6,430 bases of DNA. It comes from an uncultured archaeon. GTDB taxonomy: Archaea > Asgardarchaeota > Lokiarchaeia > Sigyniarchaeales > Promethearchaeaceae. Numbering within the stretch: position 1 is the stretch's first letter; the number at the start of each line of letters is the position of its first letter. Shown here one piece after another: positions 249-6,430 of this stretch. The notes beneath the pieces are model-generated. The model searched no databases, was not told the origin of the DNA, and was given only the letters and a program-made list of their open reading frames with translations. The DNA is taken from contig CAYRPF010000069.1 of NCBI GenBank assembly GCA_964426185.1, positions 1 through 6,430 on the forward strand, written 5' to 3'. The translations under genes and the position numbers were made by a program.

Positions 249-1227
249 TTAATTCTTCAACCCGTTTACTATAATATTTAAGTAAAATTAAATTAACTTC
301 ATCCAAATTAGATAAATCATTCTTAATTTCAATTCCACCTTGTTCTTTGATCATTTTAGGAATGTATGAATTTTCATGAGACCAATCTTTTGGTTCTAAA
401 TAAAATACAGGCTTGTTTGCTTCTCTGGCAAATTTATATTGCCATTTTGTCCCAGATTTATAATTTCCCTCAATAAAGATACTACCATTTGATAAAAATG
501 CGGAAAAACGATTTCTAATTTGTAAAGTTTTTTTGGTTACTCTTTTCCAAAGAAGTCTTTGTGAGATAAAAGCACCGTTTGCAATTACTTTAGAGATAAA
601 TTTTTCATTTTCTAGGGGATAAATATTTTCAACTCCTGAAGCAATAATTCCCAAATATCTACCGCCTACTTTGGAAGCACCTATATATCCTTCAATATCA
701 ATCCCTTTTGCAAATCCATTAATTAATGTATATTTTTTCTTAGCAAAATACTCTGCTATTAATCTCGTTTTCTTAATTGCATCCTCCGTAGGATTTCGAG
801 TCCCACAAATAGAATAAGATTTCACATCTTGATTTAAAATTGTTCCTCTAATGAATACTAAATCTCTATATTTCTGATCAATATTAAAGAAAATGAAGGG
901 AATATTTCTACTATAACCAGTAATGATACGAATGGATTTTTTAGCGCACCAATTAACCATTTCTTTTATTTTAAGGTATTCTTGTGCAGAAAAATCAAAA
1001 TTTATAACATTATTTACTTTTGAATAGTCATCGAATTTAATTTGTTTACCTTTAAGAAGAAAATGTTGAATTCTCTCTTTGTTAAGATTTTTGAAAGATG
1101 AAATGGTCATTTCTGGATTTTTAAATAATTCCATCAATCCGATTTTTGAAAAATTTAAAATCCTTAATAAATAAATATAATCGATTAGATTCTGATTTTC
1201 ATTTATTGTACTAAGGGTCAAATTCAT
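220..1227 (-). CDS. dprA: DprA/Smf-family DNA-processing (ssDNA-binding, SLOG/Rossmann fold) protein
   Basis: Family motifs are present: SICGTRNPT (cf. aIVGtR), LINGFAKGIDIEG (cf. vSGlArGID), IIASGVENIYPLEN, GAFISQ, RNRFSAFLS, IFIEGNYKSGT, FAREANKPVF, MIKEQGG. ATG at 1227 is preferred over TTG at 1230 because AGGAG lies 5 nt upstream. No C-terminal winged-helix domain is evident. Confidence 0.9.
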   Translation of the reverse strand: MNLTLSTINENQNLIDYIYLLRILNFSKIGLMELFKNPEMTISSFKNLNKERIQHFLLKGKQIKFDDYSKVNNVINFDFSAQEYLKIKEMVNWCAKKSIRIITGYSRNIPFIFFNIDQKYRDLVFIRGTILNQDVKSYSICGTRNPTEDAIKKTRLIAEYFAKKKYTLINGFAKGIDIEGYIGASKVGGRYLGIIASGVENIYPLENEKFISKVIANGAFISQRLLWKRVTKKTLQIRNRFSAFLSNGSIFIEGNYKSGTKWQYKFAREANKPVFYLEPKDWSHENSYIPKMIKEQGGIEIKNDLSNLDEVNLILLKYYSKRVEELSENARINRF

Positions 1228-1408: not shown

Positions 1409-1534
1409 ATGGGTAAAATTTATCTCCGATTGGCGCAAATCCTTGGAGAGTTGGCCAGTTTAATTTTTGGAGGCACCTTTAATCTCATCGGGATCGGGGG
1501 ATTGTTTACGGATGAACCCCGTAAAATTGGATAA
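1409..1534 (+). pseudogene. Truncated paralog (41 aa) of the membrane protein at 2159..2614
   Basis: MGKIYLRLAQILGELASLIFGGTFNLIG aligns without gaps to MGKLFLRLAQIIGGLACLFFGGTFIIIG, with 20/28 identical residues by manual count and many synonymous codon differences. It stops after 41 codons, against 151 aa for the paralog. G>E and I>N changes fall in the hydrophobic helix. Confidence 0.75.
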
Positions 1535-2068
1535 ATAAGCTTCAAACCACCGATTAATTGTGGCCCAATCCCTGAAATCGTTCATTCCATTCAAATCGTA
1601 TTTTTTCGGCCCTTCTTCGGCCAGCATTTTTCTGATCAATCCACTTTTCAATTTTCCAAAGCGTGAATTAAGCCGAAGGTCGAAAACTCCTCCAAATACA
1701 GCCGTAGTTCCGGGTTTTAGGTCATATTTCGTTAGTAACGGAGTTAGGTATTTTTCCTTGGCAGTTTCTACCCCTGCCGGATCTTTTGCCGTGCCGCAAA
1801 CCAGAAAGACTCCGAAATTATTTTTAAAAAGATTCAAGACAGCCCGTTTTTTCTTGAGAAATTTACGCAGGCTGGATGGGATTTTTCCGATTTGAATTCC
1901 GCCACCTACCACCACGCCGTCAAAGGCGGTAAGATCCAATTTGAACGTGTTTTTTACATCTACAAGCGAAACATCCACGTCGGCGGCCTGAGCGTTCTCT
2001 TCCATTTTTTCTGCAATTTCTTTAGTGGCTCCGTAACGGCTGGCATAAATTATGGCAATTTTATACAT
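1460..2068 (-). CDS. Flavodoxin-domain protein, HemG-like (Flavodoxin_5; menaquinone-dependent protoporphyrinogen oxidase-like)
   Basis: It has the FMN phosphate-binding loop IIYASRYGATKEIAE, plus FDGVVVGGGIQIGK, GVFLVC, AVFGG and the C-terminal DFRDWATINRW typical of the HemG-like family. The ATG at 2068 (MYKIAIIY) is preferred over TTG at 2074. True HemG activity is not established. Confidence 0.85.
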   Translation of the reverse strand: MYKIAIIYASRYGATKEIAEKMEENAQAADVDVSLVDVKNTFKLDLTAFDGVVVGGGIQIGKIPSSLRKFLKKKRAVLNLFKNNFGVFLVCGTAKDPAGVETAKEKYLTPLLTKYDLKPGTTAVFGGVFDLRLNSRFGKLKSGLIRKMLAEEGPKKYDLNGMNDFRDWATINRWFEAYLSNFTGFIRKQSPDPDEIKGASKN

Positions 2069-2158
2069 ACACAATTATTATTTTGATTGACAATATAAAT
2101 GATTTGGATTCAGAAATATCAAATACTTTTTTATTCTTTCACGAAGTATTTTTTTTAT

Positions 2159-2614
2159 ATGGGTAAATTATTTCTTCGTTTAGCTCAAATCATCGGAGGA
2201 TTGGCTTGTCTTTTCTTTGGCGGAACTTTTATTATTATTGGTTCTTCTGCACTATTCTCGGAGGATTTTGGTGTTTCAGACCCTCGAGAATTTTACATTG
2301 AATTATTACCCAATCTCATCTTAATTTTCAGTTCTATAGTTTGGTTTATATATTTCAATATTAAGAAAAAGTATGAAATTGGAGGTATCTTGCTTATGTG
2401 CTTCGGAGCGGCACTCTTTTGTTCAATTATTATCACTAAGTTAATCCGAACCCATGACTTCACGGAGAGTCTTCGGGCGGGGTCAATGGGTGGGATGATG
2501 TATGCACCCCCGTATATTCTTTCAGGGTTATTCTATCTGATTGCAGTTAAATTTCAAAAACCCTCAAATAATAATGCAAAAAATAATGATGATAATATTG
2601 TAAATAGTGATTAG
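2159..2614 (+). CDS. Hypothetical integral membrane protein, about 4 TM helices, 151 aa, Asn-rich C-terminal tail
   Basis: There are four hydrophobic segments (IIGGLACLFFGGTFIIIG; LLPNLILIFSSIVWFIYF; IGGILLMCFGAALFCSIII; MMYAPPYILSGLFYLIAV). The start at 2159 is supported because homology with the 1409 relic begins exactly at this ATG. Confidence 0.8.
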   Translation: MGKLFLRLAQIIGGLACLFFGGTFIIIGSSALFSEDFGVSDPREFYIELLPNLILIFSSIVWFIYFNIKKKYEIGGILLMCFGAALFCSIIITKLIRTHDFTESLRAGSMGGMMYAPPYILSGLFYLIAVKFQKPSNNNAKNNDDNIVNSD

Positions 2615-2706: not shown

Positions 2707-2942
2707 GTGGATAATAATCCAGTCTGAATTATTGAAATGTATCTTCTGACAATTTTTATGGTGATTGATGTTCTTTCCAAATGGACACGGGATCACTTTT
2801 ACACCAGTAGGAGGTGTATGGTTTTGGCTATTCTCTCATCCCTCTTTCCGATAATCTATTCAATAAACTCCAGCTTGGAATATTTCCGCCCACATTGGTA
2901 AGAACATTCTTCTTATAGCATATAATTCGAAATTCCCTAAGT

Positions 2943-3027
2943 AAAGGTAATCGAATTTCAAAGGTGATCGAAAGTCAAATGTGGTCGAAAGTCAAAGGAA
3001 ATTGAATGTTAAAGGTGATCTAGTGTC
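2943..3027. repeat. Degenerate 17-bp tandem repeat, 5 copies, consensus about AAAGGTGATCGAAWGTC
   Basis: Units: aaaggtaatcgaatttc / aaaggtgatcgaaagtc / aaatgtggtcgaaagtc / aaaggaaattgaatgtt / aaaggtgatctagtgtc, at an exact 17-nt period. Confidence 0.85.
3013..3019 (+). promoter_or_regulatory. Archaeal-type Shine-Dalgarno (AGGTGAT) of the transporter
   Basis: AGGTGAtctaGTG precedes an in-frame GTG at 3023, just before the first TM helix. Confidence 0.5.
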
Positions 3028-4678
3028 AAATGAAATAATATTACAAATAATCATTGGGCTTTGCTTCATTGGAATTATCGTAGTATTATTTTGGGAATCT
3101 CAAGACTATCTTACCTATTCCCTTCTATTTGTTTTTTTGATTGTCATTTCAACGTTAGTTTTAAGAGGTATGGGCCCAAATGAGCTGAAAGGAATTATTC
3201 TGGCAGTAGATTGGAATGTAATTGTATTTCTTATTTGTTTATTTTCGATTATTGAAATTTTGAATTCAAAGCAGATATTTCAGCAAATTGCAATTCGTAT
3301 TGTAAATAAGTTTGCTCTTCATCCCCGGCGGTTGTTTTATGCTATTTGTATTATATCAACGATGATTGCCACAATTATTGAAGATTTAAGCGTGGCTATT
3401 ATCTTCATTCCAATCGTGATTCAAGCATGCCGAGGTATTCATATAAGCCCTCTTCCTTACATGTTCGGGATCACGATCTGTATAAACTTGGCCAGTACTT
3501 TGACTCCATTTGGATCTGCCGAAAATATTATTATTGCCAATCACTTCAATCTTTCATTACATTGGCATTTAGTCAATTTGGGGATTTATTTCATTGTTGT
3601 ATTGTTCATTACTCTTTTTTTGGTTGATCGCTTGTTATTGACTCGTTATTTGAAACGGTATTATTATGAAATTTATGAAGCGATTCCGGGCTATTTTGAC
3701 CCTAATCAAATAGATCCCTTGAATAATGAAGAAAATTCTAAAAATATGAAGGGAAATAAAAGATCTAATCAACTAGATACAATTAATTATGAAGAGAATA
3801 ATAAAAATAAGAGAAGACATAAAGAACATCACCTGAGTGAAGAGTTTTTGAAAAATGCTCGGTTAAAAGAAATAAAAGATAGGGTATTTCAATCTTTGGA
3901 ACAAGCGAATTTGAATACTTCTGGTGAGGACAGAAATAAGGCAGTGATTACTGTTAGTTTAAGCGAGATTCAATTACATAATTTGCTCAAACATAGAAAT
4001 AATGACGTTAAGATAAATGTTCTAAACCTTAAAGCGGATAAAAAAGATTTTCACCGTAATATGATAGGTTTAGGGCTTTTAATAATAATATTTGTAACCG
4101 TTTCTCAAATTATAATTGCAGGAATTTTAGGATTATTACTGTTTACCTTTCTTAATCCTATAAAGGTTACAGGAAAAAAACGCATTCCTTCTGTTTCTTA
4201 TTATTTTAAGAAAATTGACGCTAAATTAATTTATTTCTTTGCAATTTTATTTATAACTGTATATTTTATGGACTTGGCAGGGATAACATATTGGATTGAT
4301 GAGTTGGTTGAAAATTGGGGGCACCATGATGTCTTTCTCATCTCAGTGGGAATATTATTACTAACTTCAATTTTATCTGGATTTCTCGATGATGCTCCTA
4401 TAACGATTATGTTTCTTCCTATTATTGACAACCTTTTACGCTTGTTTAATCATCCAGGTAATCCTATTTTTATCGCTTTTACCTTGGGAATCAATTTAGG
4501 TGGTAATTTTCTTCCGCAAGGGGCAGCTTGCGATATGATGACCCTAGAGCTGGCAAAGAAACACAATGTGAAGGGATTTACATACAAATCATTAACTCTG
4601 ATCGGTGGTTTATTTGCTTTAATCCATATTCTCCTCGGAATCGGTTATATTGCGTTATATCAAGCCATTTTTGGGTGA
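3023..4678 (+). CDS. ArsB/NhaD-family (ion transporter superfamily; SLC13/P-protein/CitMHS-like) permease with a large central hydrophilic loop
   Basis: It has many TM helices and the motifs VDWNVIVFL, ATIIEDLSVAIIFIPI, INLASTLTPFGSAENIII, SILSGFLDDAPITIMFLPI and INLGGNFLPQGAACDMM, matching the two-fold internal repeat of the family. The start could be 2981 (ORF track) but is more likely GTG 3023. The substrate is unknown. Confidence 0.85.
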   Translation: MSNEIILQIIIGLCFIGIIVVLFWESQDYLTYSLLFVFLIVISTLVLRGMGPNELKGIILAVDWNVIVFLICLFSIIEILNSKQIFQQIAIRIVNKFALHPRRLFYAICIISTMIATIIEDLSVAIIFIPIVIQACRGIHISPLPYMFGITICINLASTLTPFGSAENIIIANHFNLSLHWHLVNLGIYFIVVLFITLFLVDRLLLTRYLKRYYYEIYEAIPGYFDPNQIDPLNNEENSKNMKGNKRSNQLDTINYEENNKNKRRHKEHHLSEEFLKNARLKEIKDRVFQSLEQANLNTSGEDRNKAVITVSLSEIQLHNLLKHRNNDVKINVLNLKADKKDFHRNMIGLGLLIIIFVTVSQIIIAGILGLLLFTFLNPIKVTGKKRIPSVSYYFKKIDAKLIYFFAILFITVYFMDLAGITYWIDELVENWGHHDVFLISVGILLLTSILSGFLDDAPITIMFLPIIDNLLRLFNHPGNPIFIAFTLGINLGGNFLPQGAACDMMTLELAKKHNVKGFTYKSLTLIGGLFALIHILLGIGYIALYQAIFG

Positions 4679-4690
4679 TGAGATGCAATA

Positions 4691-4745
4691 GATTAGAAGT
4701 AAATGATTAGAAGTAAATGATTAGAAGTAAATGATTAGAAGTAAA
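4691..4745. repeat. Perfect 14-bp tandem repeat (GATTAGAAGTAAAT) x3.9
   Basis: Copies start at 4691, 4705, 4719 and 4733; the last lacks the final T. Confidence 0.97.
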
Positions 4746-4789
4746 GGGAGAAAAGGGAGAAAAGGGAGAAAAGGGAGAAAAGGGAGAAA
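4743..4789. repeat. Perfect 9-bp tandem repeat (AAAGGGAGA) x5.2, pure purine tract
   Basis: Copies start at 4743, 4752, 4761, 4770 and 4779. The array abuts the 14-bp array. Confidence 0.97.
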
Positions 4790-4796: not shown

Positions 4797-6131
4797 TTAT
4801 CCTAAGATCTCTGCATTTTGAATGATATTTGAGGCTTGTTGATGAAATTTTAAATTTCGTTCGATTAATGAATTGAGAGAATCTTTAAGAGTTTTTGCCT
4901 TCTGAGTTCCAAAAGTGATAGATTTTGTTTTTAACTTCGTCTGTGCTTTTTCAGATTCCATTTCTGCTTCATGCAGTGCTTGTTCTGCCTTGGTTAAATC
5001 TTCAGGTTTTCGTTTTTCTTCAGGTTTTTCTTGAATCTTTTTAAGTTTTTTCTGAGCTTTTTCCAGTTTTTCTTCAGCTCGTTTTGCTTCCTTAGTGATT
5101 TCTTGAAGAATTTTATAATCTTCGGAAAGTTTATGTAAGGGTTCAATGAATTCAAACTTCATCTGCTCGATAAAAGCTTGGCGATTCGTTTCAATGATTT
5201 CTAACGCACCTGCAAATCGATTTAACACTCCTTTAATGTCAGGAGATTCCTTTTCCGCATAACTCTTATAGACTGAGATTGCTTCCGTTGTTTCTTTCAT
5301 GAGCCGGGAGTGAGCGTCTAAAATTTGCTTGTTTTCCCGGATTACTTTAGCCAATTCTAAATCCGTTTTGGTAATTCGTTCGGTGAAGTTAATTATTTTC
5401 GATTTAAAGGGAGATTTTTCCTGTTTTTCTTCTTTATCATTTGTGTCTATTTGATTAGCATATAATTTACCTTCAGTTCCGACTTTAATTGCCAAGACTG
5501 GGGGTTTTACTTTCTCAATATTTTCTTTTGATTGATTGTGAAACTGTTTTCTTTGTTCAATCAGCACTTTAAAAGAATTTTTAATGATATTGAGTTTTTT
5601 TTGATGAAATTCTTCTTCTTTCTGTTCTAAATCGTAATTAATTTTTTCCAATTTTTCTTTTGCGTCTTTGACTTCTTGTTCTGCAAGTTCAAGTTCATTT
5701 TCCTTCATTTTTTCCGGATTTTTTTCCGCTTTTTCTTGTTTCTTTACCAAAGTTTTGTTAGCATGTTCCAAAGCTTTTTCGGCCCTTTGCTTTTCTTTTT
5801 TTAGTATTTCTACTTCTTTCCATACATCTGAAAGATATTCAAATGGTCGTAAAAATCCAAGGCGGAGTTGTTCTACCATTTTTCGCCTACTTTCCTCTAC
5901 TTTTTTCAGCGTTTCCGAAATTTGACTCAAAGCTTCTTTTGAAGCGGGCGTTTCAATTTCACTATAATCTTGTAAGGCTTGAATGCCTTCGTTGCTTTCT
6001 AAGCTGAGTTTTAACTCTGCTTCGAGCATCTGTCGATTTTCTTTGATTATAGGATTGATTGGAGAAGATCCCAGAAATGCTTGATCCGAAAGCTTTCCGA
6101 TTTTTTGTTTGACAGTTGTAAAAAACTTCAT
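4797..6131 (-). CDS. Tandem double BAR-domain-like helical protein (FAM92/CIBAR- or SNX-BAR/Vps5-like)
   Basis: The 444-aa protein is K/E-rich and all-alpha, with two homologous halves (aa about 1-208 and 240-444). A gapless alignment runs from IIKENRQMLEA...DYSEIETPASKEAL...EQLRLGFLRPF to VIRENKQILDA...SYAEKESPDIKGVL...EQMKFEFIEPL, and LIEQRKQFHNQS pairs with LIERNLKFHQQA. The pattern and length match a three-helix BAR domain. The CDS is near certain; the BAR call is by eye. Confidence 0.75.
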   Translation of the reverse strand: MKFFTTVKQKIGKLSDQAFLGSSPINPIIKENRQMLEAELKLSLESNEGIQALQDYSEIETPASKEALSQISETLKKVEESRRKMVEQLRLGFLRPFEYLSDVWKEVEILKKEKQRAEKALEHANKTLVKKQEKAEKNPEKMKENELELAEQEVKDAKEKLEKINYDLEQKEEEFHQKKLNIIKNSFKVLIEQRKQFHNQSKENIEKVKPPVLAIKVGTEGKLYANQIDTNDKEEKQEKSPFKSKIINFTERITKTDLELAKVIRENKQILDAHSRLMKETTEAISVYKSYAEKESPDIKGVLNRFAGALEIIETNRQAFIEQMKFEFIEPLHKLSEDYKILQEITKEAKRAEEKLEKAQKKLKKIQEKPEEKRKPEDLTKAEQALHEAEMESEKAQTKLKTKSITFGTQKAKTLKDSLNSLIERNLKFHQQASNIIQNAEILG

Positions 6132-6365: not shown

Positions 6366-6430
6366 AAATCAAGATAAATCAAGATAAATCAAGATAAATC
6401 AAGATAAATCAAGATAAATCAAGATAAATC
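6366..6430. repeat. Perfect 10-bp tandem repeat (AAATCAAGAT) x6.5 or more, running off the window edge
   Basis: The sequence is aaatc followed by six consecutive aagataaatc blocks to position 6430. Confidence 0.97.

Follow-up and report, generated by a model that had tools for sequence, protein, structure and literature searches.

BAR domains work as antiparallel pairs, for which a second chain is normally required; where both partners sit in one natural chain, the pair can differ from end to end and each half can be mutated separately. The locus described here raises the question of whether one archaeal gene encodes such a pair, which eukaryotic family its halves resemble most, and what the product might do. 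BAR/IMD proteins were reportedly mentioned in the 2015 Lokiarchaeum paper. We analyzed a stretch of 6,430 nucleotides from an uncultured archaeon (contig CAYRPF010000069.1 of assembly GCA_964426185.1; hereafter the window), for which the initial annotation had proposed a membrane-curving BAR protein of FAM92/CIBAR-like or SNX-BAR-like type in a genome of prokaryotic gene structure, with possible relevance to Asgard protrusions.

The gene at 4797-6131 on the minus strand is an uninterrupted open reading frame with an ATG start and encodes 444 aa (Table 1); an identical protein is present in three further assemblies. The neighboring genes for DprA, a flavodoxin and a CitMHS-type transporter are intron-free and archaeal or prokaryotic, the GC content of the contig (33.5%) matches that of the whole genome (34.2%), and the closest homologs of the fused protein come from Ca. 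Harpocratesius. Full-length homologs were found in Ca. Harpocratesius sp. (67%) and other Promethearchaeota, and the genome of the window belongs to the same genus as that of H. repetitus. The host is a Lokiarchaeal Asgard archaeon of the genus Harpocratesius, in line with the Asgard origin that had been suggested. Eukaryotic contamination was ruled out by the archaeal neighbors, the agreement in GC content and the presence of homologs in two closed genomes, those of H. repetitus and L. ossiferum. The genome of the window also encodes actins. No conserved functional neighborhood was found around the BAR gene: the only recurrent element was a convergent CitMHS gene at four nearest-clade loci, and the surroundings (transporter, CoA transferases) offered no membrane-remodeling context.

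Several other features of the window were recorded. The CitMHS/ArsB-NhaD-type transporter (2981-4678, plus strand), which is also convergent with the BAR gene in L001, L004, L006 and L056, has a long polar insert in the middle of the protein (about residues 230-355). Perfect short tandem repeats occur at 4691-4789, 6366-6430, 2626-2706 and 2939-3036; those with units of 14, 9 and 10 bases flank the BAR gene on both sides, and repeats of 38 and 17 bases also lie upstream of the transporter gene. All three short tandem repeats have fewer copies in L001, so that copy number varies between strains. On either side of the flavodoxin gene (1460-2074, minus strand), the beginning of a small membrane-protein gene is present (1408-1534 and 2159-2300, plus strand); these two copies share 56% identity over 45 aa, and the left one is truncated. 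The DprA/SMF DNA-processing protein (PF02481, E 1e-33) is encoded at 220-1230 on the minus strand.

Table 1. Features of the fused BAR protein and its gene
Feature	Residues	Position in window	Strand	Basis or details
Whole gene, two BAR domains in a single chain		4797..6131	-	
N-terminal basic amphipathic helix (H0-like)	2-19	6075..6128	-	Hydrophobic moment and model
BAR domain 1	26-206	5514..6056	-	Helices 26-57, 62-137 (kink P96), 146-206
Basic tip, domain 1	125-146	5694..5759	-	Sequence
Domain 1 tail	207-225	5457..5513	-	Interface list, alignment
Flexible linker	226-240	5412..5456	-	pLDDT <50 at 230-239; length varies among homologs
BAR domain 2	241-443	4803..5411	-	Helices 241-292, 297-367 (kink P331), 376-443
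Basic tip, domain 2	358-377	5001..5060	-	Sequence
Y...P turn	Y56-P62, Y291-P297			Direct reading
Helix-2 Arg, then kink proline	R82/P96, R317/P331			Direct reading
Lys/Pro loops	130-144, 364-378			Direct reading
A-E-Q motif	150, 382			Direct reading
Helix-3 F...K	F175/K179, F407/K411			Direct reading
LIE motif	190, 422			Direct reading
F-H-x-Q motif	197, 429			Direct reading

Direct reading of the translation confirmed every motif that had been quoted for the two halves (Table 1). The halves are 36% identical over 174 aa (BLASTP, E 2e-27), and their Smith-Waterman score of 287 is far above the maximum of 110 reached in 1000 shuffles. At the DNA level, likeness between them is limited to a single 36-bp stretch (83%). 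Because the halves can barely be aligned as DNA and the same protein occurs in three other assemblies, the duplication is old, and an assembly artifact was ruled out.

Both sequence and structure searches identified the halves as BAR domains. In Pfam, the whole protein matched BAR_3 (40.1 bits; cut-off 31.7) and FAM92 (32 bits; cut-off 23.6), and domain 2 matched FAM92 with 36.2 bits (cut-off 23.6) and CIBAR1 with an E-value of 6e-7. Domain 1 by itself had no significant Pfam match, yet it scored 218 bits with the family profile. This profile, built from 54 rows and searched against the PDB, matched CIBAR1 (2e-23 and 1e-21) and, beyond CIBAR1, other BAR proteins only, from 1e-5 (amphiphysin, 1e-5). 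AlphaFold2 modeled three long helices per half with a kinked helix 2 (pLDDT 87 and 92.5), the bundle that the initial annotation had anticipated. The best Foldseek match of the domain 1 model was FAM92A (9uhd; E 3.8e-6, TM 0.71), and in a wide VIA search chains of the BAR superfamily held ranks 1-36 (Z 14.2-10.5). The domain 2 model superposed on chain C of SNX1-SNX5 with Z 13.1 and an rmsd of 1.9 Å over 181 residues, and on FAM92A1 at 2.8 Å. For the whole model, Foldseek returned no E-value below 0.001 (best 0.016). It should be noted that Z-scores of 12-14 alone are not decisive for helical bundles, and the BAR assignment is therefore based on the sequence evidence. Taken together, there is very little room for doubt that each half is a BAR domain.

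On the basis of sequence comparison, FAM92/CIBAR is the nearest eukaryotic family for both halves. The residues that form the dimer and the kink of FAM92A are retained: Y127 corresponds to Y56/Y291, P167 to P96/P331 and H264 to H198/H430, and the salt bridge E131-K245 to E60-K179 and E295-K411, which is invariant in both halves. PF06730 scored over its cut-off in 40 of 400 genomes of the phylum and in none of 14 controls. In the tree, in which FAM92 was the one eukaryotic BAR family represented, a long branch (100/100) set the six eukaryotic FAM92 rows apart from all others. By the features tested, the fused protein is FAM92-like, yet outside FAM92 membership. The other affinity that had been suggested, to SNX-BAR/Vps5, was not borne out: the Vps5 Pfam model matched only 1 of the 54 family rows and not the protein of the window, which has no PX domain, its 444 aa leaving no room for one.

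We then considered how the halves are arranged. The whole chain was folded with a pTM of 0.77 (AlphaFold2, five sequences) and 0.76 (Atlas). When the halves were folded as two chains, the score was 0.76, compared with 0.00 for the best of three controls; of 80 solved complexes, 58 attained the mark used for this score, as did 2 of 110 mismatched pairs (rough counts, from our own alignments). The two-chain runs shared at least 94% of contacts with a partner pLDDT of at least 85, although the score may stem from likeness to solved BAR dimers. In the modeled pair, which is antiparallel, helix 1 lies on helix 1' and helix 3 on helix 3'. The predicted contacts with the lowest error, L42-L277 and H198-H430, join equivalent residues, as would be expected near a pseudo-twofold axis; H264 of FAM92A is a dimer-interface residue (PMC12269497). 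The predicted interface is asymmetric and takes in the domain 1 tail (208-225) and residues 401-413 of domain 2, segments whose counterparts are absent or free in the opposite half; domain 2 has no equivalent tail. No second family member that could serve as a partner was found in the 92%-complete genome of the window. In addition, the whole model superposes on another chain across both halves (351 residues, TM 0.62), which suggests that the fused protein behaves as a single unit. On these models, it is quite likely that the halves pair with each other within the same chain, and since they model as one antiparallel BAR pair, an asymmetric BAR 'dimer' made of a single chain is the probable form of the fused protein.

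The distribution of charge indicates which surfaces of this pair might contact a membrane. Mutation of region 1 of FAM92A abolishes about 90% of liposome binding (PMC12269497). The five residues of this region in the mouse protein (R108, K109, R112, R114 and K116) correspond to E37/D272, A38/A273, K41/R276, S43/M278 and E45/E280, so that a single position of the central basic cluster carries a basic residue in the protein of the window; Glu takes the place of K116 in 100% of both halves. The tip and helix-2 positions R201, R205, K176 and K183 are basic in 60-100% of both halves, and the tip lysines K130/K134 (domain 1) and K365/K369 (domain 2) align with R201/R205. The tips carry a net charge of about +3 per half, and the helix-1 center -1.7 (N half) and +0.6 (C half), compared with +2.6 in eukaryotic FAM92. 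The net charge of the whole protein is +6, and that of the homolog P0003 is -21. Residues 2-19 are amphipathic (hydrophobic moment 0.47, charge +3, shuffle p 0.028), as were 12 of 13 family N-termini (p <0.05). This segment, which was modeled as helical with pLDDT <50, is set off from helix 1 by G21/P24/P27. Its counterpart in FAM92A is where helix 1 begins, and the segment could also just pack on the bundle. The matching segment of half 2 reached only p 0.12-0.15 and was modeled as part of helix 1.

From this pattern we infer N-BAR-like membrane binding via two tips and one inserted helix. A role of the fused protein in membrane curvature, which had been proposed from the sequence, is likely, and we consider it reasonably probable that it acts as a single-chain asymmetric FAM92/CIBAR-like BAR 'dimer' that senses or stabilizes positive curvature on the cytoplasmic face of the membrane. 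In such a mechanism, the halves would pack antiparallel about a pseudo-twofold axis, with the domain 1 tail bridging to domain 2, and anionic archaeal lipids would be bound by the two basic tips and the one N-terminal amphipathic helix, not by the center. By rmsd, the modeled single domains come nearer to classical BARs than to I-BARs, which would fit a site of action at protrusion necks, bases or branch points, or at invaginations, and not within the shaft.

Other explanations account for part of these data. Pairing could instead occur across molecules, the N half of one chain meeting the C half of another or like halves meeting each other, so that BAR dimers would be connected as chains or as a lattice on the membrane. 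In favor of this, the linker varies in length as well as being flexible (61 to 100 residues between the F-H motif of half 1 and the start motif of half 2), the residues of a symmetric dimer are retained in both halves, and the two-chain model is blind to cis and trans pairing, as the models in general do not separate within-chain from between-chain contacts. On the other hand, the single chain was folded as one unit by two predictors, and the arrangement appears to be closed by a short linker, with the domain 1 tail in the interface and domain 2 tailless in the clade of the window. As local concentration should also favor pairing in cis, we regard the intermolecular arrangement as improbable. 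The conserved acidic center would also suit a BAR pair that acts mainly as a protein scaffold, for instance of a small GTPase or of actin-system components, and that attaches to membranes weakly or via a partner. On the concave side, strong conservation extends to a central patch of neutral to acidic character, residues 316-328 in helix 2 of the C half are invariant outside the modeled interface, and arfaptin, a protein that binds Arl1/Rac, shares the top place among the structures that resemble domain 1 (Z 14.2, rmsd 2.6 Å). Three genomes of a single genus (L047:627-1241, L045 and L046) have a Ras-family GTPase gene immediately after the single-BAR gene, and an Arf/Ras gene is located three genes away from the fused P0009 (L062:9441-10049). 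However, small GTPases are numerous in these genomes, so that adjacency is a weak argument, and no GTPase gene occurs near the BAR gene in the clade of the window. Since the family as a whole also conserves the basic tips and an amphipathic N-terminus, a mainly scaffolding function seems unlikely.

Two further readings concern the fold itself. An I-BAR-like protein would generate negative curvature from the inside and line protrusions, which these archaea bear (PMC13716822). IBARa reached Z 13.9 in the fold list, within about 1-2 of the best classical BARs, and 4 of the 54 family profile rows had a weak Pfam IMD match. The single-domain rmsd values of I-BARs, however, were 5.3-7.1 Å versus 1.9-3.9 Å for the best classical BARs, and both halves retain the kink proline P167 of FAM92A, which makes an I-BAR-like function very improbable. 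Similarly, the Lys/Glu-rich sequence and the weak whole-model Foldseek result might be explained by a generic coiled coil (PspA/ESCRT-III or an SMC arm) whose BAR likeness is compositional. Against this, position-specific motifs are common to these proteins and FAM92, the family profile found CIBAR1 at the E-value given above, and all nameable eukaryotic matches among 1.84 billion protein representatives were FAM92/CIBAR. BAR chains led the structure lists, in which the SMC arm appeared far below them (Z 9.6, rmsd 12.2 Å) and PspA/ESCRT-III were absent. The coiled-coil reading, which the initial annotation had itself named among its possible refutations, is scarcely credible and may be regarded as largely refuted; of the refuting conditions set there, none that was open to testing here was found to apply.

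To place the single-chain BAR 'dimer' in an evolutionary context, we examined its occurrence in 400 genomes of the phylum. The family profile matched 60 of them, all within the class of the window and all but one within its order; no member was found outside this class with these queries. Single-BAR relatives are common in the order, and outside the family of the window each match consists of one domain, about 210-240 residues long. Fused forms were detected in 4 of 14 genomes of that family and are confined to it. [quoted passage not shown] In a tree of 52 rows, N halves formed one clade (97/95) and C halves another (100/98); since each group holds together, the fusion probably arose once. 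The N and C halves may or may not be mutual closest kin (AU p 0.129). At the locus L059 (ERZ21869602, ctg72012l), two BAR genes follow one another with 43 bp between them. Gene 2 has its own purine-rich leader, a start of free-standing type and stops upstream in frame. In the tree, gene 1 branches beside all N halves (97/95) and gene 2 beside all C halves (97/80); plain pairwise scores of gene 2 were mixed. This two-gene form is a single contig with frameshift/indel errors in gene 2, and no second example was found in metagenome contigs and phylum genomes. Cdc6 on the same contig showed 62-67% identity to ten genomes of the window's family, 38-47% to the remaining four and about 45% in other families.

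These data suggest duplication, divergence and then fusion as the simplest history: one homodimeric BAR gene would have been duplicated, the neighbors would have diverged into an N-type/C-type pair, and this pair would have fused once in the family of the window. The two-gene form may instead be a later split of a fused gene. A broader proposal, which joins a complete natural series of homodimer, two-gene heterodimer and fusion among Lokiarchaeal FAM92-like BAR proteins with a polar one-H0 curvature scaffold, adapted to archaeal lipids, at the necks or branch points of L. ossiferum protrusions and an archaeal sister relationship to the ciliary-base protein FAM92/CIBAR, is doubtful as a whole. 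Three candidates for single-domain relatives that had appeared within the fused clades were set aside: P0013, whose gene is cut by the contig start; P0017, a fused gene with one in-frame TGA; and P0055. P0055 (L051, G134:C39) is a protein of 467 aa that combines PBS-lyase HEAT repeats with one BAR of the same family, an architecture not met elsewhere in this analysis. In the fused-type BAR gene at L058:68-1339, one in-frame TGA (779-781) lies between the halves and may be an error, a mark of a pseudogene or a site of read-through. In the fused P0009, the first BAR is enlarged close to its tip (residues about 170-210) by a long insertion or a partial duplication.

With regard to significance, FAM92/CIBAR, rather than Vps5, is the specific eukaryotic family for comparison, and the altered charges would distinguish ancient contacts (tips and dimer core) from eukaryotic additions (the central phosphoinositide patch). 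As L. ossiferum is cultured, membrane bending by Asgard BAR proteins and their cellular site are directly testable. The relevance to the origin of eukaryotes that had been put forward holds for the single-domain family at best and not for the fused form, which is limited to one Lokiarchaeal family and says little on this subject; because the family was not found outside the class of the window with these queries, any such bearing is unproven.

Asgard BAR domains have already been published, and no paper on the fused form, on FAM92 in archaea or on a tandem or two-BAR chain was found in the open-access literature. Vps5-BAR proteins have been described in Asgard archaea, fused to Vps28 in Thorarchaeia (PMC10307638), and two unnamed BAR proteins were detected, without significant enrichment, in a Lokiactin pull-down from L. 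ossiferum (PMC13716822); the accessible parts of both papers report BAR in Asgard archaea, yet no two-BAR chain or link to FAM92. Three points appear to be new: the occurrence of N-type and C-type halves as adjacent genes, each next to its half in the tree, which is consistent with duplication followed by fusion; the absence, judged from aligned residues, of the main central lipid-binding patch of FAM92A, with basic tips and the N-terminal amphipathic helix remaining; and the whole-model shape match to plant DUF630/632.

Among known systems, CIBAR1/FAM92A (PF06730; 9uhd, 8ceg; PMC12269497, PMC11266426) was the best match by sequence, profile and Foldseek. Common to both are three helices, the kink proline, the equivalents of Y127, E131-K245 and H264, and basic tips, and the modeled antiparallel helix 1/helix 3 interface is as in FAM92A. 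FAM92A, however, is a homodimer of single domains with no extra helices and a basic helix-1 center and binds Chibby, whereas the protein of the window combines two diverged domains in its chain with an acidic center and an N-terminal amphipathic helix set apart from them; Chibby (PF14645) had no match in the 92%-complete genome. The arms of FAM92A1 enclose an angle of 33 degrees (PMC11266426). The fused protein also resembles SNX1-SNX5 (8a1g), Vps5-Vps17 and APPL1-APPL2 (5c5b) as an asymmetric pair of paralogous classical BARs, as reflected in the close fit of domain 2 to chain C of 8a1g. These pairs consist of two polypeptides with PX or PH domains, whereas here a single chain has no lipid-recognition domain. 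The models further suggest a likeness to N-BAR proteins (amphiphysin, endophilin and Bin1) in classical shape and a basic amphipathic N-terminal helix (Bin1, Z 13.2, rmsd 2.4 Å). In contrast with N-BAR homodimers, which have two H0 helices, only one clear candidate H0 is present here, the second being continuous with helix 1 and not significant, and the sequence match to N-BAR is much weaker than that to CIBAR1. Yeast Num1 was rejected as a tandem-BAR precedent because it has one BAR-like domain in a homodimer (PMC3308694). The sole chain found that matched the whole two-domain model by shape was a plant DUF630/DUF632 protein (NRG2-like; PF04782), with a TM of 0.62 over 351 residues and an rmsd of 4.8 Å (ESM Atlas; predicted versus predicted structure). 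DUF630/DUF632 showed no sequence or Pfam match to the fused protein, PF04782 being unmatched everywhere including the controls, and the modeled likeness is probably of independent origin. Even so, the plant proteins may be a eukaryotic precedent, perhaps as unrecognized single-chain BAR pairs.
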